From contig JAZQXE010000103.1 in the NCBI GenBank assembly GCA_045632705.1, positions 381 through 64,380 of the forward strand: a DNA stretch of 64,000 bases, read 5' to 3'. The DNA is from Eubacteriales bacterium (GTDB taxonomy: Bacteria; Bacillota; Clostridia; Oscillospirales; CAG-272). The notes beneath the pieces were generated by a model. It ran no database searches. It was not told where the DNA came from and saw nothing but the letters and a program-made list of their open reading frames with translations. Shown here piece after piece: positions 8,633 to 46,158 of this stretch. The stretch's first letter is position 1. Each line of letters opens with the position of its first letter. The translations under genes and the position numbers were made by a program.

Positions 8633-9078
8633 TTATTTGTTGTTGCAACCGCAGTTTGAATTTAACGGACATTTCTTGTCATATGACGGATTGCAAGCAT
8701 AGAAGTTTTTACAGTCGAGTTTATCCTGCGCGACGCGGAGAGCATCTCCGAAACGCTGATAGTGTACTATTTCTCTTTCACGCAAAAAGCGCAGGGGATC
8801 GCGCACGTCGGGATCATCTATCAGACGGATGAGATTGTCATAGGTCACGCGTGCTTTTTGTTCTGCGGCGAGGTCTTCGTGAAGGTCTGCGAGCACGTCT
8901 CCCTTTACTCCGACGTACTTGATATCGAAGGGCGTACCCGAGGCGGCAACGGGGTAGACTCCCGTCGTGTGATCTACGAAATAAGGCGCAAACGCGCTAT
9001 TCTTGATCTGTTCCTCGGTGAGATTTTTCGTCAACTGATAAATTATCGCGCTAACCATCTCTATATGCGCTAATTCTT
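8633..9078 (-). pseudogene. cotJC: cotJC (Mn-catalase-family spore coat protein), 3-prime portion, separated from its 5-prime portion by the prophage
   Basis: From LAHIEMVSAIIYQLTKNLTEEQ ... LHEDLAAEQKARVTYDNLIRLIDDPDVRDPLRFLREREIVHYQRF it is colinear with B. subtilis CotJC residues after ...GTEEFAHLEMIATMVYKLTK. The 25 codons upstream in the track ORF (to 9148) are element-derived. Confidence 0.9.
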
Positions 9079-9098
9079 TAGGACATACAAGATATCTG
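9073..9098. repeat. attL: 6-bp core ATTCTT (9073-9078) plus element-side arm ending in GATATCTG (9091-9098)
   Basis: The same core occurs at 45963-45968. The 8-bp GATATCTG is the exact inverted repeat of CAGATATC at 45943-45950. Both sit 12 nt from the core. Confidence 0.8.
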
Positions 9099-9249
9099 TT
9101 TGGTATATCCCCTAATTCCACTATAACATACAAAAAACCAAAAATCAATAGTTTTTACAAAAAAAGTTAAAAAATATTTTTGCCGAAAAAGACAAAAGCT
9201 TGTCGAGAGCCGTCGAAAAAGCGTGCGCGTATAATTAAATGGAAATGAA

Positions 9250-9287
9250 AAACGGGAAAGGCGTTTACTTGTTCGTCCTTCCCGTTT
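9250..9287 (-). terminator. terminator after the recombinase gene
   Basis: The minus strand reads AAACGGGAAGG ... CCTTTCCCGTTT followed by TTCATTT, starting 6 nt after the recombinase stop codon. Confidence 0.6.
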
Positions 9288-9292
9288 AGTAG

Positions 9293-11050
9293 TCAAAAAT
9301 TGCTATCCCCGCTACTTTCCGTGCTTGACGGTACGGAGGGGAAGACGATCAATTCAAAGTCGTGCGGAGATACTAACCACTCCGTTTCCTTGCTTGCGTT
9401 TTCGTCTTCCTTTGACGAGGTGTCAGCGTCCTTTTGTACGTTTGACGTTTCGGTATCGACCGCATCCTGCTCGTCCTTTTTCTTTTTAGACTTTTTCGGC
9501 TTTTTCTTCTTTTTCTTTTTGACCTTTTCCGATCTCTTGTCTTTGGTATATATTATTTTTTCTATTACTTCACACAAAAGGTCGTTTTTATCCTTCGGAT
9601 CGGTGAGCGTTTCGTATACGGAGAGGATATATTCTACCTTTGGGATGATGATATCTCTTTCGTTTTTCTTCATCTCCTCGAGAGTCAGCTCCGCCGATAT
9701 GCGCTTTATGTCGGCGATGCTTTCGTTTATACGTTCCTTTATTTTTCCGCTTCGCTCGCGGAATTCCTCCTCGTCGTACGTTCCCCGCTCAAATAGCTCG
9801 TAGACCTTTTCAAGCTGCTTTTGCAGAGCGTTTTTTTCCTCTCTCTGTTTTCGCAGGGCTTCTTCCTTTGCCTTGTGCAGCGCGTCGCTTCCGTCCTCGT
9901 CCTTCTCTGACCATTGAAGCTGATATTCTTTCAGCCACAACTCGAGAAACTCGATAACGTGCTCCTCGACTATATAAAGCGGAGAGCTTACGTTGTTGCA
10001 GGTCTTGTACGGACACATCAGAGAATCACGGGAGCTATCGGGGTAGGGTCTTCTTATCATCTTTCTTCCGCACTTACCGCAGACCACCAGCCCAGCGAGT
10101 GCATTCTTTACGCTCTTATCCGATTTCATCGGCAGCTTTTTGTTGCCCTCTGTTATTCTCTTTGCCGCTTCAAACAGTTCTTTATCTATGATAGCGGGAT
10201 GCAGTCCCTCGCTTATCAGCCATTCTTCTTCGCTTGCCTTCGGACGAGAGAGGGTGAGCTTTCCGTCCACCATCTTTTTTTCCGTCTTTCTCGCATTCCA
10301 GCGTATCAGCCCCGTATATACGGGATTTGAAAGTATAGCTCTGACGCTTGGAGCCGTCCATTTTTCGTTTATGCGCGGAGGTATCTTCAGCTCGTTTAAC
10401 TTGTTTGCTATCAGAGAAGCTCCAAGTGTGCGGCGCGAGCCGTCCTCGAGCGTTTCACCGTAAACGTAAAGCTCAAATATCGTCTTTACCGCCTTTGCTT
10501 CGTCTTCGATAGGTGCGAGCGTATACCCCTTGTCGTTTTTTATCTTTACTCTTTCGTAACCGTACGGAGCGGATTGCGCTACGTATTTTCCCTCGGCGGC
10601 GGATGCGATACGTCCTCTTTGCAGACGTCTGTTTATCGTCTTGTATTCGCGCCTTGACATAAAAAGCCCAAACTCGAAATACTCCTCGTCAAATTCGTCT
10701 CTCGGGTCGTATATCTTCATCGGTGTGATTATCTTCGTGTCCGAATATTTAAAGGTCTGCGCAACGATACCCTGGTCGATAGTGTCTCCTCTTGCCAGAC
10801 GCTCTATCTCCATAACGAGCACGCCCTCCCATGTCCCCGCCTCGACCTCGGAGAGCAGCTCCTGCATTACGGGACGCGCGGCAATAGTCTCACCCGACAC
10901 TATCTCACGGTGAATGGCAGTTACCTCGATATTCATTTTTTTCGCGAGCTCAAGCAGAGTGTTTACGTGACGCGCCAGCGTCTCGCCCTCGCCTCGTGCT
11001 TCCGCTTCCGCGTCTGCACGTGATTTTCTAACGTAGAGGCAGTATGACAT
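9293..11050 (-). CDS. large serine recombinase (integrase/excisionase of the element)
   Basis: N-terminal resolvase-type catalytic domain (YVRKSRAD ... ETLARH ... VMEIERLARG). Recombinase domain (YGYERVKIKNDKGYTLAPIEDEAKAVKTIFELY). Zinc ribbon (CGKCGRKM ... CPYKTCNN) and a coiled coil. The C-terminal tail is unusually K-rich then acidic (KKKKKKPKKSKKKKDEQD...). Confidence 0.95.
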   Translation of the reverse strand: MSYCLYVRKSRADAEAEARGEGETLARHVNTLLELAKKMNIEVTAIHREIVSGETIAARPVMQELLSEVEAGTWEGVLVMEIERLARGDTIDQGIVAQTFKYSDTKIITPMKIYDPRDEFDEEYFEFGLFMSRREYKTINRRLQRGRIASAAEGKYVAQSAPYGYERVKIKNDKGYTLAPIEDEAKAVKTIFELYVYGETLEDGSRRTLGASLIANKLNELKIPPRINEKWTAPSVRAILSNPVYTGLIRWNARKTEKKMVDGKLTLSRPKASEEEWLISEGLHPAIIDKELFEAAKRITEGNKKLPMKSDKSVKNALAGLVVCGKCGRKMIRRPYPDSSRDSLMCPYKTCNNVSSPLYIVEEHVIEFLELWLKEYQLQWSEKDEDGSDALHKAKEEALRKQREEKNALQKQLEKVYELFERGTYDEEEFRERSGKIKERINESIADIKRISAELTLEEMKKNERDIIIPKVEYILSVYETLTDPKDKNDLLCEVIEKIIYTKDKRSEKVKKKKKKKPKKSKKKKDEQDAVDTETSNVQKDADTSSKEDENASKETEWLVSPHDFELIVFPSVPSSTESSGDSNF

Positions 11051-11101
11051 AAAAATTCCTTTAAAAATTCTATTGATTTTTTAAGCAAAGTATATGCAAA
11101 C

Positions 11102-11142
11102 GTACCTCCGATGTTGTAAAATAAGTCGGAGGTACTTTTTTT
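11102..11142 (+). promoter_or_regulatory. strong hairpin plus T7 run immediately upstream of the immA ATG; its 3-prime arm contains the SD
   Basis: GTACCTCCGA (11102-11111), a 14-nt loop, TCGGAGGTAC (11126-11135), TTTTTTT (11136-11142), then ATG at 11145. Confidence 0.5.
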
Positions 11143-11144
11143 CT

Positions 11145-11711
11145 ATGAATTACACTGATTATAAAAACGTCAGAGACGCGGTCTGGCGTATTCTCATTGA
11201 AGATAAAATAAACGCTCTCCCCGTAAAGATCGCCCCCATATGCGAGCGTCGCGGTATTACCGTAAAGCTCTGTGATGCGGACGAGGTCGAGGGTACGACG
11301 AATATTGTAGACGGCAAGCCCGTTATTTTTATATCGTCTAAAATAAAAAACAAGGGCAGGATGCGTTTTACGATAGCGCACGAGCTCGGTCATATACTCC
11401 TCGGTCACGTCAGCGAGGAAAATTACCGAGGCGAAAAGCATAAAGCGTACGACGTCTCAATGGAAAAGGAAGCGGACCTGTTCGCTTCGCGATTGCTCGC
11501 TCCCGCATGCGTTTTGTGGTCTTGCAACGCCTCGACAACGAAAGAGATAAAGAAGCTATGCAATATCAGCTACCGTGCGGCATCGAGCCGCGCACGCCGA
11601 CTGCAAGTTTTGACACGGAGAAAGCGCTTTCTCTGTTCTCCGCGTGAGCGTATCGTATACGAGCAGTTTTTACCTTTTATAAAGGAATACAGAAATAAAG
11701 GCTCGACTTAG
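11145..11711 (+). CDS. ImmA/IrrE-family zinc metallopeptidase (anti-repressor protease)
   Basis: HEXXH motif in FTIAHELGHILLGH, followed by EKEADLFASRLLAP. Start chosen at ATG 11145. The track start at 11094 would translate the hairpin as junk-like CCKISRRYFF. Confidence 0.8.
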   Translation: MNYTDYKNVRDAVWRILIEDKINALPVKIAPICERRGITVKLCDADEVEGTTNIVDGKPVIFISSKIKNKGRMRFTIAHELGHILLGHVSEENYRGEKHKAYDVSMEKEADLFASRLLAPACVLWSCNASTTKEIKKLCNISYRAASSRARRLQVLTRRKRFLCSPRERIVYEQFLPFIKEYRNKGST

Positions 11712-11713
11712 GC

Positions 11714-12088
11714 TCAGACCTCGTCCGGAACGTCGGGCATCTGGTCGATCAGAGTCTGCAACGCCTTTATCTGTTCGTCTGTCAGACGCTTTTTCGTATA
11801 AGTGCCGTCTCTGCCAATAGTAATAACAACGTTATGATCGGAATGCTCTCCAATTACGGAGGGCATTTCTTTTTTTGTCGTGCTTTGCGCCGACTTCGTC
11901 AGATCGACTACCAGCTGACTTTCGTCTACGCCGAAATGATCCGCTATCTTTTTCAACGTCGTTGCTTGCGGAGTCTTTCCGCTTTTCCAGCTCGTTACGT
12001 TGCCTTTGGCGAGTCCAAGCTTGCTTACGACTGCCGTAGGGGTAGTGTTATGTTCACTGCATAAAGTGATAAAATTTTGCCAAAACAT
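11714..12088 (-). CDS. XRE-family HTH repressor (ImmR/CI-like)
   Basis: MFWQNFITLCSEHNTTPTAVVSKLGLAKGNVTSWKSGKTPQATTLKKIADHFGV is a classic HTH_3 fold pattern. SD GGAGA lies 6 nt before ATG 12088. No S24 peptidase domain is present, consistent with an ImmA-cleaved repressor. Confidence 0.85.
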   Translation of the reverse strand: MFWQNFITLCSEHNTTPTAVVSKLGLAKGNVTSWKSGKTPQATTLKKIADHFGVDESQLVVDLTKSAQSTTKKEMPSVIGEHSDHNVVITIGRDGTYTKKRLTDEQIKALQTLIDQMPDVPDEV

Positions 12089-12175
12089 ACCCATTCTCCT
12101 TTTAGTTAAGTTCAACAAGTTCACAATGTGACATTTGTTCAAAGCTACAAAGGTTCAAAAAATTCATTAAATCAA

Positions 12176-12204
12176 TTGACAAAGTGAACTAAATGAACTA
12201 TAAT
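12176..12204 (+). promoter_or_regulatory. consensus sigma-A promoter for the rightward early operon
   Basis: TTGACA (12176-12181), a 17-nt spacer, then TATAAT (12199-12204). The spacer contains GTGAAC and ATGAAC half-sites. Confidence 0.65.
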
Positions 12205-12352
12205 GTAACCACGGACAAGTCTATACGTTCATTTTACAACAAAAAAACGAAAAAGTCAATGAAAAGCGATGAAAGAAATGAACGAAGAGAAAAAAGAGCT
12301 TGTCGGTCGTGACATGCGGTGAAAGATCCGCTTTAGCTATCGGAGGGATGAG

Positions 12353-12547
12353 ATGAACATAGGAGAAAATGTCAGAAGGATCCGTATTGAGAGGGGAATG
12401 ACTCAGGAGAGGCTCGCAGAGCTTGTGAACGTCTCACATCCGACTATTTGCCGTCTTGAAAAAGGGGTAAAGATACCGAGCGTGATGCTCTGCTATTCTA
12501 TATCGCAGGTGCTGGGATGCAGCATTGCGGATATCGTAGGCGAGTAA
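12353..12547 (+). CDS. XRE-family HTH protein (Cro-like)
   Basis: MNIGENVRRIRIERGMTQERLAELVNVSHPTICRLEKG. SD is ggaggg. It is divergent from the repressor gene. Confidence 0.85.
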   Translation: MNIGENVRRIRIERGMTQERLAELVNVSHPTICRLEKGVKIPSVMLCYSISQVLGCSIADIVGE

Positions 12548-12599
12548 CGCCGCCCCCGTCTCGAGCATAGCATATAAGACGGTATAAAGGAGGTATGTG

Positions 12600-12827
12600 A
12601 TGACGGACAGAGCGTCAGTTACCCGAGCGGGAAACGTCGTGATGGATTATTACAGCGGAAGGACCCATATCGTCGTTTGTGACGATCATTATAGAAATAT
12701 GACGGCACTTGAGTTGCGCACGAGGCTTGATAAAATAGCGAAAAAGGTACGCGGCCCGTACGTGAGTGCATTAAGAGAAAAGGAAATAAAAGAAAAAGAT
12801 ATCGGAGGAAAGAAAAGTGACGGATGA
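12600..12827 (+). CDS. hypothetical early protein
   Basis: SD AAGGAGG lies 6 nt before ATG 12600. No motif recognised. Confidence 0.5.
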   Translation: MTDRASVTRAGNVVMDYYSGRTHIVVCDDHYRNMTALELRTRLDKIAKKVRGPYVSALREKEIKEKDIGGKKSDG

Positions 12828-13038
12828 ATACGGCAAAAAGATCAAGAGAGCGCTGATCGATATCGGCAAAAATCAAAAATGGCTCGTAGCAGAGGTAAGA
12901 GATAGGACGGGGCTATACTTCGACCACTCGTACCTGTCAAAGATAATGTCGGGAAAATACAGAAATGCGGGTATGGTGAGAGCAATAGACGCGATACTCT
13001 GTTTTTCGGAAAATGAAAAAGAAGATGAAAAACGGTGA
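12817..13038 (+). CDS. hypothetical small protein, possibly DNA-binding
   Basis: GTG start with GGAGGA 7 nt upstream. IGKNQKWLVAEVRDRTGLYFDHSYLSKIMSG is HTH-like. Confidence 0.45.
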   Translation: MTDEYGKKIKRALIDIGKNQKWLVAEVRDRTGLYFDHSYLSKIMSGKYRNAGMVRAIDAILCFSENEKEDEKR

Positions 13039-13210
13039 GGATACGGTTTCGTTGCTTCTTTGCGTCAATAGTGCTCTCGGAGATATAAGGATGACTTTGA
13101 CAGAGAAGGATACGCTCTGCGCCCGCGAGATCGGTGAACTGCGAGAGATGCTCGCGCGTGAGCAGGAGCGTATCGTTGACGCTATCGTATGTTTTTCAAG
13201 ATCAAAGTAA
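13013..13210 (+). CDS. hypothetical small protein (start uncertain)
   Basis: ORF only, with no convincing SD. Confidence 0.3.
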   Translation: MKKKMKNGEDTVSLLLCVNSALGDIRMTLTEKDTLCAREIGELREMLAREQERIVDAIVCFSRSK

Positions 13211-13223
13211 AAGGAGGGAGGGT

Positions 13224-13496
13224 ATGAAATACGATTTATCTTTACCCGTGCCCGCTCTGTTGCTTGCGTCTGTGCTGACGCTCTGTTTCGTGCTTGCAGC
13301 GCTTGCGGTATTGCTTTTGTTGCTGCCCGACAGACCGAAGAGAAAACGACGCCAAAGACGCCCCCCTCGCGCAGTTCTCGAGACGGAGCTTGCGTCGCTT
13401 TACGGCAGGTGCCGTGAACTTGAGAGGGAAAACGAGATATTGATGCGGGAAAATTACAGATTGAGAATATTGAAAGGTAAGGAGGACGCGAGATGA
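13224..13496 (+). CDS. membrane-anchored coiled-coil protein
   Basis: SD aaggaggga precedes ATG 13224. The TM segment PALLLASVLTLCFVLAALAVLLLLL is followed by an R/K patch and ELERENEILMRENYRL. Confidence 0.55.
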   Translation: MKYDLSLPVPALLLASVLTLCFVLAALAVLLLLLPDRPKRKRRQRRPPRAVLETELASLYGRCRELERENEILMRENYRLRILKGKEDAR

Positions 13497-13714
13497 CAAA
13501 TCAGGATGCAAAGATCGCTTTTCTCACTTGCGCGTCGGTCATACACAGAGATTCGTACCGACACATCGAGACGAGATACGAGAAGATATCCGCGATAATA
13601 TATAGGTACATAGACGGCAAGCTTCACGTTTCGGCTGAGCTGGTAGACAAGAGCGATAACAGCGTGACTATCGCAAAGGTGCGCGATCTTGAGTTTGCGC
13701 GGGAAGTGGAGTAA
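13493..13714 (+). CDS. hypothetical early protein
   Basis: ATGA overlap with the upstream stop codon. No motif recognised. Confidence 0.5.
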   Translation: MTNQDAKIAFLTCASVIHRDSYRHIETRYEKISAIIYRYIDGKLHVSAELVDKSDNSVTIAKVRDLEFAREVE

Positions 13715-13738
13715 AAATAAAAAGCACCGAAAAAAAGA

Positions 13739-13758
13739 AAGAGCGCACGGCTCTTTTT
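13739..13758 (+). terminator. candidate terminator within a longer imperfect hairpin (13723-13765)
   Basis: AAGAGC-gcacg-GCTCTT followed by TTT. The outer arms AGCACCG and CAGTGCT extend the structure. Confidence 0.45.
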
Positions 13759-13807
13759 CAGTGCTTGTATTGAATATTAACTTAACGACCAAAAGAGAGG
13801 GATAGAA

Positions 13808-14206
13808 ATGATATACGGGAAAAGAGAGAGTGGAGTCGGTCAGTCCGTCCCGTCCTCCTTTTCGGAGCTTTTGAGGCAGACGGCACTTCAGACGGATCTT
13901 ACGGGGATAAAGCGTACTCACCCGGCGGTGTTTGCGCAGGCGCAGGAGCTGTGCGCTATAATAGCAGAGGTCTATTCTATGGCTTCGGAGAGTGAGATAA
14001 ACGTAAACGGTGAGCGTATGCGCGCGTCTTTTGTAGCGGATGTGTTCCTGCACCTTACCTCCGAGCATATCCTCGCCGTGATAGAGAACTACAACCAAAG
14101 ACGCTACGCCGTGAAAAACAAGAAGTCATATCTGCGCACGGCACTCTACAATTCCGTTTTTGAGCTTGCAAACGGGATAGTAAACGATATAGCGAGCGGC
14201 AGATAG
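13808..14206 (+). CDS. hypothetical replication-module protein
   Basis: SD agagaggga. The C-terminal NKKSYLRTALYNSVFEL resembles replisome-organiser/DnaD-like tails seen in Firmicutes mobile elements (weak recollection). Confidence 0.5.
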   Translation: MIYGKRESGVGQSVPSSFSELLRQTALQTDLTGIKRTHPAVFAQAQELCAIIAEVYSMASESEINVNGERMRASFVADVFLHLTSEHILAVIENYNQRRYAVKNKKSYLRTALYNSVFELANGIVNDIASGR

Positions 14207-14232
14207 TGAATTTTTTTTGAGAGGAGGGATGT

Positions 14233-15039: not shown

Positions 15040-15293
15040 TAAGGCTTTATTATTGCCACCCGAAAGGAGACGAGCGGGGGCTTTATATCATTTCGTCAAG
15101 CAGTAAAGGTGCTGTGCACAGATTCAGCCGTGCGCGGCATATTCCGCATTACAAAATAGACGCGGAGAGGGTAGATATCGATATCGATCCCGACGAGAGC
15201 GAATGTATCGTGTACCCGGGCAGCGTTACGGCTGATATATACGGTATCTCGTATAGCCGACGAGAAGCGCAAAGGAGGGGAGGAGACAGATGA
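15036..15293 (+). CDS. hypothetical protein
   Basis: ATGA overlap with the Rep stop codon. Confidence 0.5.
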   Translation: MIRLYYCHPKGDERGLYIISSSSKGAVHRFSRARHIPHYKIDAERVDIDIDPDESECIVYPGSVTADIYGISYSRREAQRRGGDR

Positions 15294-25024: not shown

Positions 25025-25028
25025 AACT

Positions 25029-40800: not shown

Positions 40801-43800
40801 AATTGATAAATGAAAAAACAGGGAACGCGCTATCGAGGGATTACATTCTTCAAAACATAAAAGAAGAGCCGATCTCCAAGAGTAGACGCTTTTCAAAGGC
40901 GCATCACTCGGAAACTGACTCTTCTACTATTAGTGTATCCGATTTATTTGAACTTGTCAAGGAGAACGACAAAGATTTTCATTACCGGCCTGTAGATCCT
41001 GTGCTACTAAACAGTGACGGCACACCGAAGGTCTTCTATCACGGAGCTACGGAGGATCTTACCGCGTTTGACTCTGATCAGATCGCGTCAGACGAGGGCT
41101 CATTCTTGTTTTTCGAAAACAGAGAGGAAGCTCAAGCGTACGGAGAAAATGTTTTTGAAGTTTATCTCCAAGGAAGAAAGCTCGCCGACTACGATGATCA
41201 GCCGAGCGAATTTTACCGCTTGAATGATAAGCACTCGCAGGCCGAGTACCTAAAAGACAAGGGATATGACGGATGGTATAGAGATATGGATAGTGACGGA
41301 TGGGGTGAAGTGTCTGTTTTCTCCCCCGGACAGATAAAGTCTGCTGCCGAATTTGTTGACATTCTATATGAACTCGGTTATACTGAAAGTGAAATAGAAA
41401 ACTATAAGAAAAGAGTAGGTATAACAAATGACGAACAACGAAATGTATCTGAATTTGATAGATCAGTGGCTATTAGGCATGATAGCAGAGGACGACGAGG
41501 AACTGCGACGTCTGGACTGCCTAACAACTCACGGGGACAGGCACGCGGAGTATCAGGGAGACAAGAGCCGCTGGGTAGATCTGACACCGGAACAGAGAGA
41601 ACAGGCATACGAAAATATGATCTGGGAATAAGCTCCTCCCTCGCAGAGCCCGACGGTGGCGGTGTGGTTGAGTATTCAAACGAGGACGTAGATGTTAACA
41701 CGAACGACAAAAGTCTTTATAATAAAAACAAAGACGGAGGAATAACAAATGGCAGTCAAGACCCCGAAAGAGTGGCAGGAAGAGCGCTTTCAACCGCTCG
41801 TAGAAGCAACGACGTTTTACGGGAACAAAGTAATGATTCCGCAGGGTTATCAGTGCGCATGGGAGATGGCGGAATTGGAAGTGAAATTCTTGATGTCGAA
41901 AGGCAAGGATCCTCTGGAAGGCACGGAGAACCGGGGCGGAAGACGGTACAATCCTTATCTGGTGTACATGGAAGCGTACGAAGAACCGAATTGAACGGAT
42001 ATAACAAAGACGGAGGAATAACAAATGGCAGTCAAGACTCCGAAAGAGTGGCAGGAAGAGCGCTTTCAACCGCTCGTAGAAGCAACGACGTTTTACGGAA
42101 ACAAAGTAATGATTCCGGAAAAATGTCTGTTCGCGTGGGAAATAGCAGAAGCGGAAACCAAGGAGATGTTGTCGAAAGGTATGGATCCAGTGGATGGCTT
42201 GGAAGGTCACAGGGGCTTGCGAATAGTTCCATACAAAGTTTACTTGGAGATATTCGAGTAAAAGAGCTATCATTGATAGACAGTATAGGTCGTAGCGCAG
42301 GGGATGAGTCGGAGAACGCAGATGCGAAAACTCGTAAAAGGAAAGCGGACAACAAAGTATCGAGAGTCTACTCCCATACCGTTGCCGCGCTCTACGCGCA
42401 AGCCGAAAAGGATAACGTCGCGGAGCTTGAGGATTCTATATACTCTTACAACGTTTTGCACGAGAGAGATAGTATAAGAGCGGCAAAAACGAGGCTCGAG
42501 TCTCGGTACGAGTATGAAAAAGAGTATTTGTCACAGAAGGAATACTGGTCGGGAGAGGACCTCGACGTTGCTATGGGCATCGAGACAAGGGAGCGTCAGG
42601 CTGCAATTGAGAGCGGAGACTATAAGGAAGCTGCAAAATGGATAAAACTCATCCAGGAGCACGGAACGAGCGCGGGTAAATTCATCCAGAGCTTTGCAAA
42701 GTACACGCGCACTCCCTCGGGTATAGTTGCTCGTATCATCAACAAGCTAAAGACGGTCGAGGGGTACACGGACGACGATATTGCTCGAATATTGCCAAAG
42801 CTCACGCAATCTGCCGCCCTTCTTGAGAGCGTCAGCTATGGGGACGTTGAGGGCATAAAAAACACTATCCGTGAATTTGCAAAGACAAGAAACACCAAGA
42901 TAGGTGATAAACACTTCTATACGCGATTATCCCAGGCGCTTGACGAGGTAAATGATTTTGAATTTTTAAACAAGCTCGCCACCGCTCAGCTTGAGAATAT
43001 GGCTACAGACAACATGGAGCCGAGTGTGTTTAAAAAGTTAAGTTCATTTCAGACTATGGCACAGCTGTTGACGCTAAAGACTTACGAGAGAAACGTAGTG
43101 TCGAATGCGGCAATGGAGGTTATGGAGGCACTCGCCACGAATAATCTCGGATACGTTGTTGACCGCGTGATAGGTACCTTTACAAAGGTAAATACGGTAG
43201 GTCTTCAGAGTACGAGATGGAAAAAGACGGCACGAGCAGCCGCCGCAGAGGGAAGATACCGCGCTACACTTGAGGTAGGACTTGATGCGAGAGTCAGAGA
43301 TTCCTACGACGATATAGTCGGCGGCGGGGAGCGCAACCGAAAGAAAACGAACGAAAAGTATTACAATACCTATAAAAGAACGTGGAGCGCCGCAAGCGGT
43401 AATCCTCTCATACGCGGACTTTCTACGGCAGAAAAACTGCTTGGATATTCGCTTAACGTAACCGATGCAAAGCATAAGGCGGGAGTAGAGAAAGAGGTCT
43501 ACGACAGCTTGAGCTTTGCCGTTGAAAAGGGCTATATCAGCGACTCGGAGGCGAGGCGCATCGCAAAGTCGGAGGCGGAGTACAGAGCTTTTCAAAACTC
43601 CAACGTCGTAAGCGATATGCTCTACGATCTCAAACAAAGTGCAAACAGGATAGGTACAAAGGACTTCGGACTTGGAGATCTGGTGCAGAAATATACGCAG
43701 GTGCCGGGTGCGCTCATATCCAGAGTCATTGAATATTCACCCGTCGGGTACGCGAAAGCCGTATATAACTTTATAGAGCTATGCAGGGCGGGGGCGAATG

Positions 43801-45413
43801 TCGATACGATGAGTGCTAAAAAGAGAGAGGCACTATTTTCGGCACAGAGGAACTTTGCGCTTCAGTTTGCGAGAAGCACTACGGGAACGGCTCTGATCGC
43901 CGTGTGCGCCGCGCTCGCGCGTCTTGGACTGTTTGGATATTCCGATGACGACGAGGACGATGACAGAGCGGCGTTTGAGAGAGATCAGGGACTTGACGGA
44001 TTGCAGGTGAACTTCTCCGCGTTTGGCAGATTTCTTCTCGGAGACGACTCGTCCTGGCGCGAGGGAGATATGCTCGTAGACCTGGGATTTCTCGAGCCGC
44101 TTGACGCTATTGCTTCTATCGGAGTTGCGCTTGATAATACCGCGCAAAAGGAAGGACTTTCCCTTGGCGGATATATCGGAGAGGGAATTGAGGAGACCCT
44201 CGATGCACTCGTGCGGTCAATTTCTGACATTCCCACTATGCAGACGATATCGAGCGTGTACGATTCGTGGAAGTATTCGGATGCCGACAACGTCGGAGGA
44301 AAAATAATTGACTGTGCCGTTACCTTTGCGGCTTCCTCGGTGACGGGATTGATGCCGAATATCGTTTCGCAGTTTGCGAATGCTGCAGACTCATATTACA
44401 GAGATACGTACGCGGATAACGAGACCGAGACTCTCTTGCGCAAGATAGCATACAAGATACCGGGTATTCGAAATCTTTTGCCAAAATCTCAAAACGCGTG
44501 GGGAGAAGAGCGTGAGTACACAAACTCCGTAGCTCACGCGATAGGCGCGGTGTTGTTCCCGGGCAACGTAAATGAGCTCAAAACCGACGACGTAGAAGCG
44601 GAAATAAACCGCCTAGCAGATCTTGCTTATCAAACGGACGGCGTTGATATCATCCCGGACAGAAGCGTCCGCTCTGCCTTAACTATCGCGGGATGCGAAT
44701 ATACTCTCTCCGAGAGGGATAAGGTAGAGTTTGCGGCTATGAGAGGTCAGGTAGCGTATGCTCTTTACGCCGAGATAATAACCTCGGAAATTTACAAAGC
44801 CGTCTCGGACAGTGAAAGAGTACTGATGCTCGACCTGGCAAAAGAGTATGCAAATTACGTTGCAACGAAAAACTACGCCGAGAAAAACGGTATAGACTAT
44901 AAAAATTCCGCAAAAGAGAAGATAGAAAACAGACTTTCATCGGGTGCGGTAGACAACTTTGCGATAGAAGCGTACAAAAACCTGATACAAGGCGACGGGG
45001 AAGCGCAGAGCATCAGCAGTATAGTCAACGACACAGCGCTTGACAACAACGTAAAATTACAGCTCATCTACGCTTTGACGACTACCTACGACAAGGATAC
45101 GGGCAACGTTGACAGAGAAAAATACGATAATATAGTAAACGCCTGCAATGCGGGCGCGCCGTTGACTCTCGTATCAAAGTTTCTCAACTACTGCGACTCG
45201 ATACAGAGCTCGGTCGACCAGAGCGGCCGTACGGTATATACCGATATTGACGGTGTTAGCGCAAGGCGCAAAACGGAGCTTTGCGAGCGGTGGCTCGAAA
45301 CGACGAGAATGGACGTTGACGAGCGCGGTAACTTTGTCAGAGTGACAGACGAGATCAGATACTACCTGTATGCGCTCCAATATCCGAGCGAGCGCACAAA
45401 TCCCTTCAGATGA
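28839..45413 (+). CDS. giant 5,524-aa modular polyvalent-type protein (candidate packaged/ejected effector polyprotein)
   Basis: A single uninterrupted ORF with SD aaaggagcgg. The N-terminal ~900 aa are coiled-coil plus Gly/Ala-rich hydrophobic segments. The centre is a mosaic of repeated modules including an HEXXH peptidase, a PBECR-like module and an ART-like module. The C-terminal ~1,050 aa contain hydrophobic segments (TALIAVCAALARLGLF). Confidence 0.85.
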   Translation: MSIADIKALSDEKRTKDTLAKTNRESAATLTPNASALYRAKENKLERLGKTKAGTPVISGLDSYYKQYSDAVKTEKDADSLYSRLSGLSASNEYLKKDVEGMRSKYGDEWADAQLSNLSSIKRSIKDAEFSRLVGEYEKAVEYNASLYDGDVYNENNAYSLEKLKADAEAFGRNAHEWYDYVESRRTEKGDEWADSARAFIDRAGKFYGSAWKNYASLMDGAQTLTAGGAYESDAERYAAQNKAYRDALYSSKYKDHTYDELMSAKSDLFRNEKKNDTSTPLPYEIYNTTAKGDSVSSLLKTNAKPKLDLSARVGISDEEAKRELDWINEHKSDITYLLGADDETIDRVRRGMEAENETLKNERNRLASEIRGIKDPTESEREKIKEYEKRIKEIDDRVEYGILGYTDDGIAVTFDNIKAINRADTTLADIERSEEQKRAFEKAQMRNNELEMINEIARVTSEPTFIVKNNEKKKKLDETELDVGEDEVQFYSSFASAESAFDLLTPEQKDLCEYISKTYGIHIVNGGRFDVAELERARRRLFEEKNAAVSRFEAYGYDFGELDYYLDLKEDIKESAKRAEEDAAWAKEHPVLSTISTLYRAPLTVFDYADNLIDSSKGIGRENSIYGVSNVYDDNFINRNNTYLGAVSESIYDSVKDTTDSTTLAWLASTAYSGVTSATQSAMTTAVCVTLFGPALGSKVALGVMGAEAASSSYNNAVKNGSSNLEALLTSMAAGTAEVLFEKLPMDNLIKLGRGMNASEMSGLLKKALYASSGAFKQALTEAGEEFGTEIVNLLADELINGDHSSYANNVKKLMTDGYTYDEARQKASEEVVLGVLSSAIGGFIGGASSGSVGSIVGLSQLLSDNSSERDMLDTLTSREFAEAESESFELLRELAASDKKVAGVTLAGYVDEYSALRDEVTDTGLKDAISEKISALSEFALENGIPLATQTKNIKTTADISPNVPIDAFLDGATLHTKQKGGKKTTALRRAYSLVSAVPESVDGILSLFERTGANVKNIIEDQTSWYLQSYTKHISQTEFANIDSTLGYHYAQEKARGIVTDEYVRTQVAAQYLASVIAKGGFSKSAFDISASDPMTVQRLVNIASGAYHKSAAKSLVRRANRLSEIETVAGKITEMMTEAERYEALKNRKLQVAQVNQENAIKIAETSPELIDKTLKKSNALRLIKRLGEEFGVFKQYQNSDIDIKFEFGKNNLAESLTKQKGNYDLYAHMLSCFDEVVENAIGIEVHNRNQDGYIPDPTLNKVYVLCSAFENEDGIIPCKLSVKEFNDKTNRLYVAVALESIKKDRVVSMGVPNTRSHVRTSPVTISIRDLFANVNSRDVDFLKYIPDKFLSEEQIAAKSEQKNNSNTSYNTKTSKSHTSANLNGRITIDGEVSKTKNNFKGSLPDERIFIDENLKKSFRGVAEDGRKIYESNFPFMLKAYTDKQKENWVGSKRIVLYENEKQFREFINESLNNKQYNKKMYFGAVSSELAELIRNKTGIEAEGYNVSLSSNEIRKIIKDHGDENKELPRGQRAVTADDFLNIPKVIQSPDEIRKGQKDYDGKPVILFDKVFKGQFTVVAVVSDKHLDIRVQTSYIGIKKGNLATPVDASSPAFTSETSRGTVSDIIIPHLQGKVNINVKEKSNGDYVYRFNAEKKSSTRRTLHAGVSTVKGANGELFLDNNISQDTFVVNSNDMQNKEKYTEKISGQSVISENGHGTPYQTADGSSVTHPGEKVNTKTSKSHTSANLNGRITIDGEVSKLTDVQLDSIDGIGVLARALGLNVHIYNSSVIDGERYIVNSDGEVIKSPNGWYDTNDGSIHIDVNAGGRGTMLFTMSHELTHFIRDWSRQKYEKLERYVRAFHEEDGRSIDELKNEQIELARQNGIAITDDVAMEEVVATTLEGMLSDGSIIEHVANIRKIDTTLGDKIKSKISELIRKIKDAYARIPARTSNSTFLSETEEALAELQALFEDALLNASDNYTRAENKKASGEGKRYSIKYPKYSKAEIESNIKQLSKMSSVYDVSAEKLKKTGVSPKEQFRQYFKSLNENIYTEEFGDVSLRNSSVKSEIRHGITAEKTASIEAIPAVLEKGKVVFSKSKETDTERIVVAAPIKIGDTTYFMGVMLQRNSQNQRLYLHNVVIEKETSFPSQTDSLTNWALEENESLYMTSILQNVLRVKNQYMQNSGNYTRAENKKASGDGGVIYDVGYTTDNKPVALNIKKVDMRSPSNSNNAKNSSNISTNNNVSQDTSVVNSNYMKNGGNYTRAKNIKASGEETDKKKYDLDESLGIQLYDWLYGQGKKYGSYNGEFFKLGTTPTIFTKHGAPSVELIMYDDVITKVTGGKHNISLDEIAKLPSQLNDPILLFSGSVPNSFVALTELVDKLGNDVIVAVHINKHYSRNVVNKIASLYSKSDNNGNNRIIDYIKRQINEQNLIDASNNKASNWFTTRGLQLPKVVQTILDANKRISQKDPVVNIDDMQYGDDYTQKEKQKASGEDKRYSIKYPKYSKADIESNIKELAKMASVYNVSAEKLKKTGKRPREMYEEFFALNNNNIYVEEFGDIELSKASVREEIRHGVPPEKIASIEAIPAVLKNGKVVFFKNKETDTERIVVCAPVTIGNTPYFMGVMLQRNSQNKRLYLHNVVIEKETSLSSQTDLVTTGALEENESLSMTSILQNALLVKNQYNVVIEKEASSSSQADSLTNWALEENDTLFITSILQKVLHVKNQYMQNGGNYTRAEKKRSSTEGGVIYDVGYTTDNKPVALNIKKVDMHMPSNSNNAKNSSDISTNNNISQDTSVVNSKYMKNGGNYTRGEKKKVSEEETKASAANSSGETGVGILSQSFIDKTLRSFAIKSPGDFIHVQRQVFGTLVDEGFFTDEEARSRTDVNEETGMEIETNKSGIYETFDRDNYGIRGRNIKFIKLATVRQLPEIIKNGTLIEDNVLNSHNNSSNVSFSYIEHEIDVDGTPVTIKVSVKKTPQKNKLWVHSVYTEKISGPDAISKNGNEAPYQTADGSSVTYPGEKVNTKNKNSHASVTLRADEVYKQRTDLAVGDKVGAVTLVADLDTGKPVTPKLRVEFDREDMSSYILATIESLGDKELVGAFEDELAILLMDSDADLPMLDAVDILSEYVRDGSITPEQAAQILSKELSDPTGADIPTLVERATYGDGVGDSLGSSAYSYDALTKKQDVSVTMLPYDIPRTAEGKIDRKTIISLGRFNARSQNNERNTPTETYVYVPDIDVDVLIRKDGLEHGLSRDDDTALATIKIGDLLKNSIAVNELNGRTNGKRSTDMAYVLLSIGENKNSPYLVRTIVDKTTNAVMEISTYGLYAIKAKKEGALFMPEGNEAVGDNRSYPFLRSTISIADLLESVKNEPIANEIFSNDVLEKIGATRTEGTLSPDIRYSFAEPNGGDGVKYSLENSKIVRNMPSSKRYQILSKKYFTEIPSVAKLSTGILEKVKDISSWEDINAFQGKEKRELIMKIADEFGVFKTLKNTDIELHFEFSKNNYRESFNKQKRQYEHFAKMFSVFDKVIAQAIGIEVHNKNDIGYKPDPTLENVYVLLSAFEDGDYIVPVKLEIKEFKDKENKLYVAIALDKIKKTGVSEQGTTENGVAQDSRPVKITITDLMQKVNPHQLEIKEFNDKENKLYVANALDKIKKTGVWKQGTTENGVAQDSRPVKIIITDLMKKVNPLQTSFTKYFPNEVLTNEQKQVLIEQGIYNSDTGIPRSISEPDGGDGVRYSLGDTSIDIKDISTYITKKESNTVTQALDVNTSSSTSETELASPDIASGKRVSQSETDVNSHYMRNHKRYSLEEYNKPITAADVDVLKSIDKINGKPKSVSQFTSEDIEKTQKWAYKFYKEIGTKSPFFRAWFGDWREYDSSKTTIVSTEGALRGNTRNEDTDWNIIISRQVHKETTHHSSEKVKTAVRYLPYIEQITKNAVLLDSYISEKDNNLSAMFHSFYAYTEMFGYPALLKLQVEELINEKTGNALSRDYILQNIKEEPISKSRRFSKAHHSETDSSTISVSDLFELVKENDKDFHYRPVDPVLLNSDGTPKVFYHGATEDLTAFDSDQIASDEGSFLFFENREEAQAYGENVFEVYLQGRKLADYDDQPSEFYRLNDKHSQAEYLKDKGYDGWYRDMDSDGWGEVSVFSPGQIKSAAEFVDILYELGYTESEIENYKKRVGITNDEQRNVSEFDRSVAIRHDSRGRRGTATSGLPNNSRGQARGVSGRQEPLGRSDTGTERTGIRKYDLGISSSLAEPDGGGVVEYSNEDVDVNTNDKSLYNKNKDGGITNGSQDPERVAGRALSTARRSNDVLREQSNDSAGLSVRMGDGGIGSEILDVERQGSSGRHGEPGRKTVQSLSGVHGSVRRTELNGYNKDGGITNGSQDSERVAGRALSTARRSNDVLRKQSNDSGKMSVRVGNSRSGNQGDVVERYGSSGWLGRSQGLANSSIQSLLGDIRVKELSLIDSIGRSAGDESENADAKTRKRKADNKVSRVYSHTVAALYAQAEKDNVAELEDSIYSYNVLHERDSIRAAKTRLESRYEYEKEYLSQKEYWSGEDLDVAMGIETRERQAAIESGDYKEAAKWIKLIQEHGTSAGKFIQSFAKYTRTPSGIVARIINKLKTVEGYTDDDIARILPKLTQSAALLESVSYGDVEGIKNTIREFAKTRNTKIGDKHFYTRLSQALDEVNDFEFLNKLATAQLENMATDNMEPSVFKKLSSFQTMAQLLTLKTYERNVVSNAAMEVMEALATNNLGYVVDRVIGTFTKVNTVGLQSTRWKKTARAAAAEGRYRATLEVGLDARVRDSYDDIVGGGERNRKKTNEKYYNTYKRTWSAASGNPLIRGLSTAEKLLGYSLNVTDAKHKAGVEKEVYDSLSFAVEKGYISDSEARRIAKSEAEYRAFQNSNVVSDMLYDLKQSANRIGTKDFGLGDLVQKYTQVPGALISRVIEYSPVGYAKAVYNFIELCRAGANVDTMSAKKREALFSAQRNFALQFARSTTGTALIAVCAALARLGLFGYSDDDEDDDRAAFERDQGLDGLQVNFSAFGRFLLGDDSSWREGDMLVDLGFLEPLDAIASIGVALDNTAQKEGLSLGGYIGEGIEETLDALVRSISDIPTMQTISSVYDSWKYSDADNVGGKIIDCAVTFAASSVTGLMPNIVSQFANAADSYYRDTYADNETETLLRKIAYKIPGIRNLLPKSQNAWGEEREYTNSVAHAIGAVLFPGNVNELKTDDVEAEINRLADLAYQTDGVDIIPDRSVRSALTIAGCEYTLSERDKVEFAAMRGQVAYALYAEIITSEIYKAVSDSERVLMLDLAKEYANYVATKNYAEKNGIDYKNSAKEKIENRLSSGAVDNFAIEAYKNLIQGDGEAQSISSIVNDTALDNNVKLQLIYALTTTYDKDTGNVDREKYDNIVNACNAGAPLTLVSKFLNYCDSIQSSVDQSGRTVYTDIDGVSARRKTELCERWLETTRMDVDERGNFVRVTDEIRYYLYALQYPSERTNPFR
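32960..33034 (+). repeat. 75-bp perfect direct repeat, copy 1 (encodes NTKTSKSHTSANLNGRITIDGEVSK)
   Basis: Identical to 34055-34129. The offset of 1,095 bp equals 365 codons. Confidence 0.9.
33207..33680 (+). other. module resembling phage Barnase-EndoU-ColicinE5/D-RelE-like (PBECR) nuclease domains of polyvalent proteins
   Basis: SSNEIRKIIKDHGDENKELPRGQRAVTADDFLNIPKVIQSPDEI ... FTVVAVVSDKHLDIRVQTSY. Called from recollection of the family pattern only. Confidence 0.35.
34055..34129 (+). repeat. 75-bp perfect direct repeat, copy 2
   Basis: Identical to 32960-33034. Confidence 0.9.
34131..34575 (+). other. zincin-like metallopeptidase module (HEXXH at 34359-34373)
   Basis: GGRGTMLFTMSHELTHFIRDW. 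The context resembles MPTase-PolyVal domains. Confidence 0.6.
39585..39938 (+). repeat. 177-bp (59-codon) tandem duplication, two near-identical copies
   Basis: The copies at 39585-39761 and 39762-39938 both encode LEIKEF(K/N)DKENKLYVA(I/N)ALDKIKKTGV...GTTENGVAQDSRPVKI.ITDLM.KVNP. Confidence 0.9.
40975..41345 (+). other. ADP-ribosyltransferase-like module (ART-PolyVal-like)
   Basis: LLNSDGTPKVFYHGATEDLTAFDSD...GSFLFFENREEAQAYGENVFEVYL matches the remembered pattern G.P.vvYHGT..f..Fd...g.fFt....A..Y....v..vyl. Not verified by search. Confidence 0.4.
41428..41631 (+). CDS. nested +1-frame ORF 1 (67 aa, acidic) inside the giant ORF
   Basis: GTAGGT-ATAACAA-ATG has the same spacer as the other two nested ORFs. 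The product MTNNEMYLNLIDQWLLGMIAEDDEELRRL...LTPEQREQAYENMIWE looks globular, while the giant-frame translation here is R/G/S-rich. Confidence 0.4.
   Translation: MTNNEMYLNLIDQWLLGMIAEDDEELRRLDCLTTHGDRHAEYQGDKSRWVDLTPEQREQAYENMIWE
41749..41994 (+). CDS. nested +1-frame ORF 2 (81 aa) inside the giant ORF
   Basis: Perfect SD GGAGGA lies 7 nt before the ATG. It is a paralog of 42025-42261, and the pair differ mainly by third-position-biased substitutions in this frame. Confidence 0.6.
   Translation: MAVKTPKEWQEERFQPLVEATTFYGNKVMIPQGYQCAWEMAELEVKFLMSKGKDPLEGTENRGGRRYNPYLVYMEAYEEPN
42025..42261 (+). CDS. nested +1-frame ORF 3 (78 aa) inside the giant ORF
   Basis: Same SD and first 31 codons as ORF 2. 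There are 16 synonymous-only codon differences from ORF 2 in this frame. Confidence 0.6.
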   Translation: MAVKTPKEWQEERFQPLVEATTFYGNKVMIPEKCLFAWEIAEAETKEMLSKGMDPVDGLEGHRGLRIVPYKVYLEIFE

Positions 45414-45435
45414 TACGCGGATAAAGAAAAGAAAA

Positions 45436-45465
45436 AGCACTTGCAGTCAATCGACTGCAAGTGCT
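45436..45465. terminator. bidirectional terminator between the giant ORF and the convergent 79-aa gene
   Basis: AGCACTTGCAGTC-aatc-GACTGCAAGTGCT: a 13-bp stem. The T-run is strong on the minus strand and weaker on the plus strand. Confidence 0.75.
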
Positions 45466-45489
45466 TTTCGTATGTTTGGAGTTACCGGA

Positions 45490-45729
45490 TCAGGAAAGAG
45501 CGGCGCAGAGTCTGTCCTCAACTACGTCTTTCAGATGTACGGGGGAGAGACGCGACTCATTGCACTCGCGTGCCAGCTTTTCAACAAACTCCTTGTTTGT
45601 TGAGACGTCGGGTACCTCCGCTACGATGATGAGATCCTCTCCGTCATTTTCGAGCGCTATTATGCCGTAGGTGGTGTATACCTCCTCGTTTATTTTGAGC
45701 TCTCCTTCGATTACTTTGTAGTTAGTCAT
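45490..45729 (-). CDS. 79-aa acidic protein at the element right end (resembles a small conserved clostridial DUF family)
   Basis: SD aaagagg. Sequence VYTTYGIIALENDGEDLIIVAEVPDVSTNKEFVEKLARECNESRLSPVHLKDVVED. Confidence 0.65.
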   Translation of the reverse strand: MTNYKVIEGELKINEEVYTTYGIIALENDGEDLIIVAEVPDVSTNKEFVEKLARECNESRLSPVHLKDVVEDRLCAALS

Positions 45730-45750
45730 TTCTTTTTACCTCTTTACTTT

Positions 45751-45882
45751 TTAAATTTTTTTGATATTCGTTTTTGCTTTGTTCGGTCTTCGTTCTTCTT
45801 TGTGCTTGGGCGGTGCGTTGGGAGTTTTAGAGAAAAACAATAGATCGTGTCGCCGTGCTGTAAACAACTTTGTGTCAGGCAT
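45751..45882 (-). CDS. 43-aa basic protein, first gene inside the right junction
   Basis: Strong SD GGAGGA lies 6 nt before ATG 45882. Sequence MPDTKLFTARRHDLLFFSKTPNAPPKHKEERRPNKAKTNIKKI. Too short for the ORF track. Confidence 0.45.
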   Translation of the reverse strand: MPDTKLFTARRHDLLFFSKTPNAPPKHKEERRPNKAKTNIKKI

Positions 45883-45902
45883 AAGCTGTCCTCCTTATTT
45901 TT

Positions 45903-45932
45903 TAGCGGGCAGGGGCGCACCCGCTAATTTTT
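45903..45932 (+). terminator. hairpin with T-run on the plus strand only
   Basis: TAGCGGG, a 10-nt loop, CCCGCTA, then ATTTTT. On the minus strand the hairpin is followed by A-residues, so it should not stop transcription entering from cotJ. Confidence 0.4.
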
Positions 45933-45942
45933 GAGTCATTTG

Positions 45943-45968
45943 CAGATATCAAGTGCATCCTCATTCTT
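45943..45968. repeat. attR: element-side arm beginning CAGATATC (45943-45950) plus 6-bp core ATTCTT (45963-45968)
   Basis: Mirror image of attL. The joined element ends give CAGATATCAAGTGCATCCTCATTCTTTAGGACATACAAGATATCTG, with 15 of 23 arm positions symmetric by my count. Confidence 0.8.
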
Positions 45969-46158
45969 CAGTGCCTATGTCTGTTAAAATACCAACTACC
46001 TCGTTATACGGCATTGAGTACCTTTGTTGCAGATATCTCATAGAAGCACCAAGCTCACCGTCGGGGCCTCCTATCTGCGAGATGATTATTTGCGCGTACA
46101 GCGGATTGGGGTTCGTTATTTTTACGGGGTATTGCAGTTTCTTTTCGTATATCCACAT
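45961..46158 (-). pseudogene. cotJC: cotJC 5-prime portion (65 codons), terminated by an element-supplied TGA
   Basis: MWIYEKKLQYPVKITNPNPLYAQIIISQIGGPDGELGASMRYLQQRYSMPYNEVVGILTDIGTEE is colinear with the B. subtilis CotJC N-terminus MWVYEKKLQYPVKV...GGADGELAAALRYLNQRY...LLTDIGTEE. Confidence 0.9.

Follow-up and report, generated by a model that had tools for sequence, protein, structure and literature searches.

A temperate phage with a large serine recombinase integrated in the spore-coat gene cotJC, with a candidate directionality factor and possible developmental excision

INTRODUCTION

Two described systems frame the locus treated here: prophage SP-beta, a fully competent phage that acts as a developmental switch on the spore-envelope gene spsM of Bacillus subtilis, and the skin element in sigK, known from B. 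subtilis and C. difficile. For each, transcription of the recombination directionality factor (RDF) that partners a large serine recombinase (LSR) has been described: SP-beta sprB has an upstream phage promoter and a mother-cell promoter of its own, from which transcription starts 20 nt ahead of the start codon (PMC4191935), and CD1234, the RDF of the C. difficile skin element, is transcribed under sigma-E and SpoIIID (PMC5025042). Here, we analyze a 64-kb window (64,000 nucleotides of contig JAZQXE010000103.1 from the Eubacteriales bacterium assembly GCA_045632705.1; "the window" refers to this whole stretch throughout) in which cotJC, at the end of a cotJA-cotJB-cotJC operon that is intact in other respects, is split by a 36.9-kb prophage. 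On balance, and with moderate confidence, we favor the reading that this LSR phage, which carries a candidate RDF, undergoes developmental excision, such that cotJC would be rebuilt in the mother cell.

An earlier reading of the sequence (the original prediction) had left open whether cotJC was already reported as a target of such elements, and literature listings show that it was. A survey by Abe et al. (Molecular Microbiology, 2013) is said to list a cotJC interruption. In the accessible portions of two preprints, cotJC is named as an interrupted sporulation gene, with Abe et al. 2013 cited (bioRxiv 10.1101/2021.11.22.469490), and a skin-like element is placed in cotJC of Laceyella sacchari (Galperin et al., bioRxiv 10.1101/2022.02.25.481979). 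As far as those portions go, the previous listings are one-line mentions that describe neither att sites nor a recombinase clade, and neither an RDF candidate nor an intact phage, and we found no experimental study of an interrupted cotJC in the literature. What is added here is the breadth of the recombinase clade, a definition of the att sites, and a candidate RDF with its promoter box.

RESULTS

A prophage splits cotJC within a metal-ligand motif

The original prediction had read one minus-strand open reading frame (ORF), at 45961-46158, as the first 65 residues of CotJC, ending in TDIGTEE and a stop codon, and another, at 8633-9148, as the rest of the protein after 25 unrelated codons. Both translations agree: the 171-aa product of the second ORF (minus strand) consists of 25 unrelated codons followed by LAHIEMVSAIIYQLTK. 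When the host flanks are joined in silico at the core common to both junctions, an in-frame 636-nt ORF of 211 aa results, matching the uninterrupted product of about that length that had been anticipated. Colinearity of the joined 65 and 146 aa with a Mn-catalase model, which had been set beforehand as a test, was borne out: residues 1 to 183 of the rebuilt CotJC match positions 1 to 197 of Pfam Mn_catalase (PF05067, E = 2.3e-54) in a single stretch across the junction, and solved Mn-catalases align across it without gaps.

The insertion lies at the Glu64-Glu65 codon pair, directly before Leu-Ala-His68, where this coat protein of Mn-catalase type has its first metal-ligand motif. The 5′ fragment carries E35 and E65, both aligned with metal-ligand positions, and the break falls between E65 and H68; in the rebuilt protein, all three residues align with ligand positions of the solved enzymes (which we take to be Glu35, Glu66, and His69 of the L. 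plantarum catalase). Because the insertion site splits this motif, neither fragment is expected to be active alone. Both cotJB and cotJC appear in a listing of the B. subtilis sigma-E regulon (PMC3416734), and the interrupted gene, lying as it does within a cotJ operon, is predicted to be a sporulation gene expressed in the mother cell.

Just inside the left phage end, on the minus strand at 9120-9148, is a sigma-A-like promoter (TTGATT-17-TATAGT with a TG) that points outward to the cotJC 3′ fragment. As the 171-aa ORF starts at this promoter, the 3′ fragment might be transcribed in lysogens.

Attachment sites and the recombinase at the left edge

The core ATTCTT and the perfect 8-bp inverted repeats, each 12 nt from a core copy, are present at both junctions as originally predicted (Table 1), and the quasi-palindromic attP of LSR type that had been proposed from them can be reconstructed, with the 8-bp repeats and extra symmetric positions surrounding the 6-bp core. 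For scale, the chance of a perfect 8-bp inverted repeat at a single fixed symmetric position is about 1.5e-5. The attB sequence, GGCACTGAAGAATTAGCGCAT, is partly symmetric as well, and the circular attP junction reads CATCCTCATTCTTTAGGAC. Short att sites (about 40 to 50 bp), imperfect dyad symmetry, and a very short shared core are as expected for an LSR. In silico, recombination between attL and attR would give back the 211-aa frame without error. A search of IMG/VR for the 32-nt attP junction expected of a free or circular phage gave no exact match. A TAGGACA heptamer, conserved ahead of the candidate RDF gene in relatives (see below), lies in the window at 9079-9085 (plus strand), immediately inside the left junction and within the attP arm, which may be coincidence.

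The LSR gene occupies the left edge of the element, its stop codon 215 bp from the left core (the distance given in the original prediction). Its product has a catalytic domain (PF00239, residues 5 to 156), followed by PF07508 (E = 7.6e-21) and a zinc ribbon (PF13408, E = 2.2e-07), and its Y6-R8-K9-S10-R11 motif, which includes the serine nucleophile, is invariant across 14 LSR relatives. The element is a temperate phage integrated in cotJC, presumably by its own LSR.

A second strain and intact orthologues

Since the 68.5-kb contig probably derives from a metagenome-assembled genome, the phage and the cotJC halves could in principle have been misjoined during assembly. We assign this chimera a negligible probability. 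The same right junction is found on a contig (L006) from a separate ENA assembly, with 98.0% identity over 4.6 kb, so that this junction is not an assembly artifact; the core and symmetric repeats are common to both junctions; and the same architecture recurs in dozens of other genomes. Between L006 and the window, host genes differ by 1.4 to 5.2% and the phage end by 1.7 to 2.4%, and the cotJC 5′ fragment differs at a single one of its 198 nt, with the amino-acid sequence unchanged. It seems that host and prophage have diverged in step and that the cotJC fragment has not decayed, in a two-strain sample that is too small to prove selection.

Intact cotJC orthologues in ENA metagenomes are 89 to 92% identical to the rebuilt protein, keep the synteny ETF / Big_9-SLH / cotJA / cotJB / cotJC, and read TD[IV]GTEELAHIEM across the site. 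The search of relatives for an uninterrupted attB, proposed with the original prediction, gave matches in other organisms only: the exact 21-nt site occurs in the intact cotJC of a different low-GC organism (L034) and also at the edge of another interrupted cotJC (L035). In the latter, also from a low-GC organism, foreign DNA abuts GGCACTGAAGAATTAGCGCAT at 2150-2200, element and host are identical over a longer stretch than they are in the window, and no recombinase lies at that end of the element.

A dead insertion, with a prophage that has lost the ability to excise and a cotJC left as a permanent pseudogene of the lineage, is a second rival. It would account for the lack of any empty site found for this species and for the absence of the exact rebuilt 211-aa protein from a collection of ~15 billion proteins, in which the 65-aa fragment is present on two contigs. 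We nevertheless hold it to be very unlikely: the LSR is full length with a conserved catalytic motif, both att sites are intact and symmetric, all large phage ORFs (including one of 16.6 kb) are open, and neither cotJC fragment contains a frameshift or stop, their nonsynonymous divergence (dN) being 0.03 to 0.07 from orthologues whose synonymous sites are saturated.

A clade of recombinases at the same cotJC site

Relatives of the LSR (47 to 65% identity) comprise 27 loci from IMG/VR and 80 genome loci, the latter being the best 80 of 427 with one genome per species; the set is biased, in that the query alignment came partly from cotJC-associated sequences and the top 80 matches were kept. A cotJC fragment broken at residues 61 to 69 lies directly beside the LSR in 8 of the 27 IMG/VR loci and in 48 of these best 80 genome loci, and the breaks fall at the same Glu-Glu|Leu-Ala-His motif. 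The adjoining fragment is either the 3′ piece, co-oriented with the LSR (as in the window), or the 5′ piece, in opposite orientation. Metagenome-assembled carriers belong to the Oscillospiraceae, Ruminococcus, Christensenellaceae, Lachnospiraceae/Blautia, Tissierellales, and Sedimentibacter; isolate carriers are Clostridium methylpentosum DSM 5476, Caproiciproducens galactitolivorans BS-1 and YR-4, Bianquea renquensis NSJ-32, Anaerovorax odorimutans DSM 5092, Anaeromonas frigoriresistens D2Q-11, and Paenibacillus lacisoli JX-17. Judged by sequence, the window LSR falls in a large clade whose members share this cotJC site as target, among many Clostridia and in at least one Paenibacillus.

In a rough neighbor-joining tree of 107 recombinases (built without support values and descriptive only), cotJC-associated enzymes make up most of the backbone, with groups that use other targets nested among them, one of these beside an asparagine-synthase fragment. 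Downstream of same-clade LSRs in L017 and L021 (~4575-5300), such a fragment starts mid-profile (Pfam Asn_synthase 127-278), which suggests a target switch within the clade. Closely related LSRs also occur in both orientations relative to cotJC (L071 versus L073 and L048 versus L050), a pattern consistent with an attP that is nearly palindromic and whose central dinucleotide has flipped.

Reduced elements retain the recombinase

At seven loci, the fetched stretch includes both halves of cotJC, and the element between them is far smaller than the window prophage: 2.9 kb (L074), 3.0 kb (L101), 5.4 kb (L115), 5.9 kb (L073), 6.6 kb (L090), 7.5 kb (L059), and 8.2 kb (L114). These reduced elements come from several genera and have no phage structural genes, yet each keeps a full-length LSR; the two smallest contain little beyond the LSR and a small partner protein. 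Joining the flanks after the second Glu codon rebuilds G-T-E-E-[LM]-[AG]-H in frame in all seven. The sequence shared by the two junctions of an element ranges from 3 to 13 bp, and only the second GAA codon is universal. Together with the symmetry center of the window attP, this shared codon suggests that the crossover dinucleotide is probably its GA. Retention of a full LSR without phage structural genes, a pattern also shown by skin and gin, makes these elements hard to explain unless excision is still selected.

The cotJC 3′ fragment also has a second cut, after ...EDMAA(E/D) in the second metal-ligand motif, in L101 (~11800), L060 (~4100), L025, L026, L029, and L030 (~4830), and L115 (~5950), where the foreign ends are alike (G[GT]xCGAxT...AAAGAACAACA). 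It seems that cotJC has a second, different insertion hot spot and that some genomes carry the gene in three pieces; the 3′ fragment of the window is uncut there. In L074, pieces matching residues 1 to 36 and 30 to 65 of the CotJC N terminus lie 8 kb apart (293-400 and 8619-8726), which may reflect a further interruption or a partial duplicate.

A candidate directionality factor

When ORFs of the small elements were compared with those of the window, a single gene other than the LSR was shared, encoding a protein of 50 to 90 aa with a core of approximately G-N-[IV]-V-x-[DE]-[FY]-x-I-G-N-T-x-I-x-I-x-D-D-Y-C-R-x-K-T-x-E-E. All reduced elements but L114, for which the search found none, have a homologue (six of seven), as does L072, for which only the N-terminal junction is on the contig. 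A profile built from these eight sequences (window, L072, and the six reduced elements) matches 63 segments in the fetched LSR loci, the window included, and the gene is almost always divergent from the LSR and 0.1 to 8 kb upstream of it. The 75-aa window member of this family is, from these comparisons, the best RDF candidate. A word-based homologue search with it returned the candidate itself as the sole match.

Two small genes at the right end of the phage, the DUF6514 gene and a 43-aa ORF (45751-45882), were also considered as RDF, because they are co-oriented with cotJ and could be expressed by read-through from it; they were rejected, DUF6514 occurring only in L006 among 115 loci.

Mother-cell-type motifs upstream of the candidate

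A box of the form [AT]AGGAC[AG] stands upstream of the candidate RDF in 29 of the 63 loci, mostly 36 to 56 nt before the start codon, against a frequency of 2.1% in control 120-nt stretches of the same loci. It is concentrated next to cotJC (23 of 35 cotJC-adjacent regions versus 6 of 28 others). Aligned on the box, the consensus is ATAGGACAA-N11-mATAnAnT, the downstream element of which resembles the CATA-type −10 of sigma-E and sigma-K promoters. The idealized SpoIIID site of B. subtilis, TAGGACAAGC (PMC11180830), has the upstream part, TAGGACAA, as its core.

In the window, an AC-N17-CATAGCATA motif directly before the candidate RDF fits the sigma-K consensus (that of B. subtilis), one of two matches to this pattern on both strands of the 64 kb; its position is suggestive, and the same pattern is found at the same place in L059 and L101. 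Under strict patterns, three sigma-K and two sigma-E matches precede the 63 RDF candidates.

Developmental excision or ordinary lysogeny

The idea of sporulation-coupled excision draws on a clade of related LSRs with the same target, reduced elements without phage genes included, on a conserved partner protein, and on mother-cell-type motifs upstream of its gene. Of the sporulation-coupled intervening element put forward in the original prediction, the anatomy and the in-frame restoration held up; for the coupling, the evidence is comparative, apart from the single sigma-K-like match in the window. Excision would need a directionality factor, for which the 75-aa protein is the best candidate, and this protein could be transcribed by two routes: from the repressor-controlled early sigma-A promoter on prophage induction and from the sigma-K-like promoter in the mother cell (Table 1). 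Such a two-promoter arrangement would copy SP-beta sprA/sprB: the terminal mother cell would be the only place where cotJC is rebuilt, and the prophage would stay in the spore.

The main rival is that the window phage is an ordinary temperate phage for which cotJC is a conserved, dispensable attachment site: it would excise on induction only, its lysogens would form spores that lack CotJC, and there would be no developmental regulation. We treat this as a serious contender, although the less probable one. LSR phages often integrate inside genes, and the window phage looks fully functional, with a standard repressor/Cro/ImmA switch and the candidate RDF within its early lytic operon. Mutants of C. 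difficile cotJC reportedly have mild phenotypes, and cotJC-type genes there are reported to be redundant or nonessential (PMC11222575), such that a phage could sit in this gene without any need for developmental excision. Further findings weigh, along with this one, against developmental excision. The region upstream of the window candidate has no SpoIIID-like TAGGACAA box of the kind seen in relatives; the total of sigma-K matches in the window is no higher than chance for an 8-base consensus that was found post hoc. The role assigned to the candidate RDF comes from co-occurrence only: it has no match in Pfam, PHROGs, or NCBIfam, its profile has only a short, probably spurious match to NDUFV2 in the PDB, and its single-sequence AlphaFold model (a beta-hairpin plus a helix) is of low confidence, with a predicted local distance difference test (pLDDT) score of 60.8. 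In L007 through L009, which have the closest LSR relatives, a different gene occupies the syntenic place, where no homologue of the small protein was found. No same-species empty site was found, which belongs on this side as well.

What speaks against ordinary lysogeny is the maintenance at this site, across several genera, of 2.9- to 8.2-kb elements that have an intact LSR and partner gene without structural genes, the strong enrichment of mother-cell-type motifs before the partner gene in relatives, and the undamaged state of the cotJC fragments in two strains ~2% apart. We therefore favor developmental excision, which we regard as likely for the clade and as plausible, with a modest leaning in its favor, for the window phage itself.

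Gene content of the prophage and its surroundings

The genes for the lysogeny switch, replication, packaging, capsid, and lysis are all present and open, the 16.6-kb ORF among them (Table 1); the complete-looking virus described in the original prediction is thus recognizable in PHROGs matches to its terminase, portal, major head protein, endolysin, and holin. Genes for a tail tube or sheath were not recognized in the prophage, nor were other tail genes, save the internal-virion-protein-like gene and a leucine-rich-repeat (LRR) protein. For the terminase, no phage record covered at least 80% of the protein, the best reaching ~51% identity over the N-terminal half, and no isolate phage is therefore a close relative.

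The 16.6-kb ORF amounts to 45% of the prophage. Its 5,524-aa product has several LPD3 domains, an HExxH motif (TMSHELTHF), and internal repeats of great length, and the frame for its final 557 residues is likewise open in L006, the second strain. Its domains mark it as a "polyvalent protein," a type found in phages and conjugative elements.

At the right end of the phage, the 43-aa ORF (45751-45882, minus strand) is basic, has an AAGGAGG ribosome-binding site, and is co-oriented with cotJ. Between the small right-end genes (45490-45882) and the junction is a stem-loop with a T-run on the plus strand only, so that read-through from the cotJ promoter into the phage looks possible. Beyond the other end, the left host flank encodes on the minus strand a 1,535-aa protein with Listeria-Bacteroides repeats (within 863-8367), a signal-peptidase S26-like protein (7729-8367), and a small secreted protein with no family match (6934-7641); the three genes may form a cell-surface or matrix cluster beside cotJ.

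TABLE 1 Features of the split cotJC locus and its prophage (window coordinates)
Feature	Coordinates	Strand	Remarks
cotJC 3′ fragment	8633..9072	-	146 codons from LAHIEM plus natural stop; Mn_catalase profile 65-197
Core, left copy (attL)	9073..9078	.	ATTCTT on plus strand, AAGAAT on coding strand
Integrated prophage	9079..45962	.	36,884 bp; bounded by two core copies
Left arm, perfect 8-bp inverted repeat GATATCTG	9091..9098	.	12 nt inside element from core; part of attP
Large serine recombinase, 585 aa	9293..11050	-	Reads towards left junction; Pfam Resolvase, Recombinase, Zn_ribbon_recom
ImmA/IrrE-like metalloprotease	11094..11711	+	phrog_1914 (E = 1.8e-34) and phrog_87, metallo-protease
Helix-turn-helix (HTH) repressor, CI-like	11714..12142	-	phrog_8 and phrog_4, transcriptional repressor
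Perfect sigma-A-type promoter TTGACA-17-TATAAT	12176..12204	+	12/12 matches; faces early operon
Cro-like HTH gene	12353..12547	+	ORF; syntenic HTH genes in related loci
Sigma-K-like motif AC-N17-CATAGCATA	12547..12574	+	Ends 25 nt before start codon of next gene
Candidate RDF, 75 aa	12600..12827	+	Unannotated family; gene after cro; AAGGAGG ribosome-binding site
Replication initiation protein	14233..15039	+	phrog_3584, E = 1.9e-72; Pfam REP_ORF2-G2P
Terminase large subunit	16661..18196	+	phrog_3717 (E = 3.6e-64) and phrog_2
Portal protein	17968..20142	+	phrog_156, E = 1.6e-30; listed ORF start probably too far upstream
Major head protein	21421..22428	+	phrog_371, E = 2.2e-17
Endolysin (peptidase plus LysM)	24230..25024	+	Many lysis PHROGs
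Holin	25589..25870	+	phrog_1129, E = 6.2e-17
Internal-virion-protein-like gene	26077..27966	+	
Polyvalent protein, 5,524 aa	28839..45413	+	Single ORF; Pfam MuF_C, LPD3, PBECR3, ART-PolyVal
DUF6514 gene, phage right end	45490..45729	-	Co-oriented with cotJ operon; Pfam DUF6514, E = 1.3e-13
Right arm, 8-bp inverted repeat CAGATATC	45943..45950	.	12 nt inside element from core
cotJC 5′ fragment	45961..46158	-	65 codons plus stop from phage end; Mn_catalase profile 1-66
Core, right copy (attR)	45963..45968	.	ATTCTT on plus strand, AAGAAT on coding strand
cotJB	46160..46462	-	Intact; Pfam CotJB PF12652, E = 1.3e-26
cotJA	46438..46764	-	Intact, first operon gene; Pfam CotJA PF11007, E = 1e-12

DISCUSSION

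If excision in the mother cell holds true, this phage would be the second case, after SP-beta, of a fully competent phage serving as a developmental switch on a spore-envelope gene, and anaerobic gut Clostridia, whose transmission is driven by sporulation, would have their first example. Annotations of genomes, metagenome-assembled ones included, are likely to show split cotJC genes as pseudogenes or short ORFs, yet these genes may be rebuilt in development. The comparative data supply cultured carriers for testing and define an att-site pair of about 46 bp, for which natural variants are available; a candidate RDF family for a large group of serine integrases would also be of interest to genome-engineering toolkits.

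A broader reading, which we advance tentatively and consider rather doubtful, is that cotJC-intervening elements are among the most widespread developmental rearrangement systems in spore-forming Bacillota: an old LSR clade and an undescribed RDF family wired to the mother-cell program. The RDF gene could then stand under a SpoIIID box and a sigma-E/K-type −10 element, carriers of the module could range from intact phages (as in the window) to 3-kb remnants, and the coat catalase could be made only in the terminal mother cell, with the phage using host sporulation signals as a second trigger of excision.

Four described elements resemble the cotJC locus to different degrees, as follows.

(i) The yin element in yabG of Clostridium botulinum likewise interrupts a sporulation gene of a clostridial host, is prophage-like, and has a predicted RDF preceded by a putative sigma-K promoter (PMC10747680). 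The gene and the recombinase are different, and growth-phase-dependent excision of yin was shown by experiment (PMC10747680).

(ii) The gin element in gerE of Bacillus cereus ATCC 10987 is not a prophage (PMC5595907), and the 2.9- and 3.0-kb elements of L074 and L101, essentially a recombinase and a small partner gene, are like it. This likeness concerns relatives rather than the 36.9-kb window element, and the target gene is another one.

(iii) The skin element in sigK (SpoIVCA in B. subtilis; CD1231 and CD1234 in C. difficile) likewise has an edge LSR beside the 3′ gene fragment, and the C. difficile RDF, driven by sigma-E and SpoIIID (PMC5025042), is to be compared with the TAGGACAA box of the relatives, although the window element has no SpoIIID-like box. 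Whereas skin is a defective prophage in a regulatory gene, the window has a complete-looking phage in a structural or enzymatic coat gene.

(iv) SP-beta in spsM (SprA as LSR, SprB as RDF) is alike in being an intact, inducible-type prophage that splits a mother-cell spore-envelope gene, in having its LSR at the element edge, and in the exact restoration of the reading frame. It also has a small acidic partner gene preceded by an upstream phage promoter and a sigma-E/K-type promoter ~20 nt before the start (PMC4191935), an arrangement that is predicted here. The differences are considerable: the target is cotJC in place of spsM, the host is one of the uncultured Bacillota of the gut rather than a Bacillus, and the window phage is unrelated, 37 kb in size, devoid of recognizable tail-tube or sheath genes, and equipped with a 5,524-aa polyvalent protein. 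Its RDF candidate has no detectable similarity to any described protein and is known here from sequence alone.

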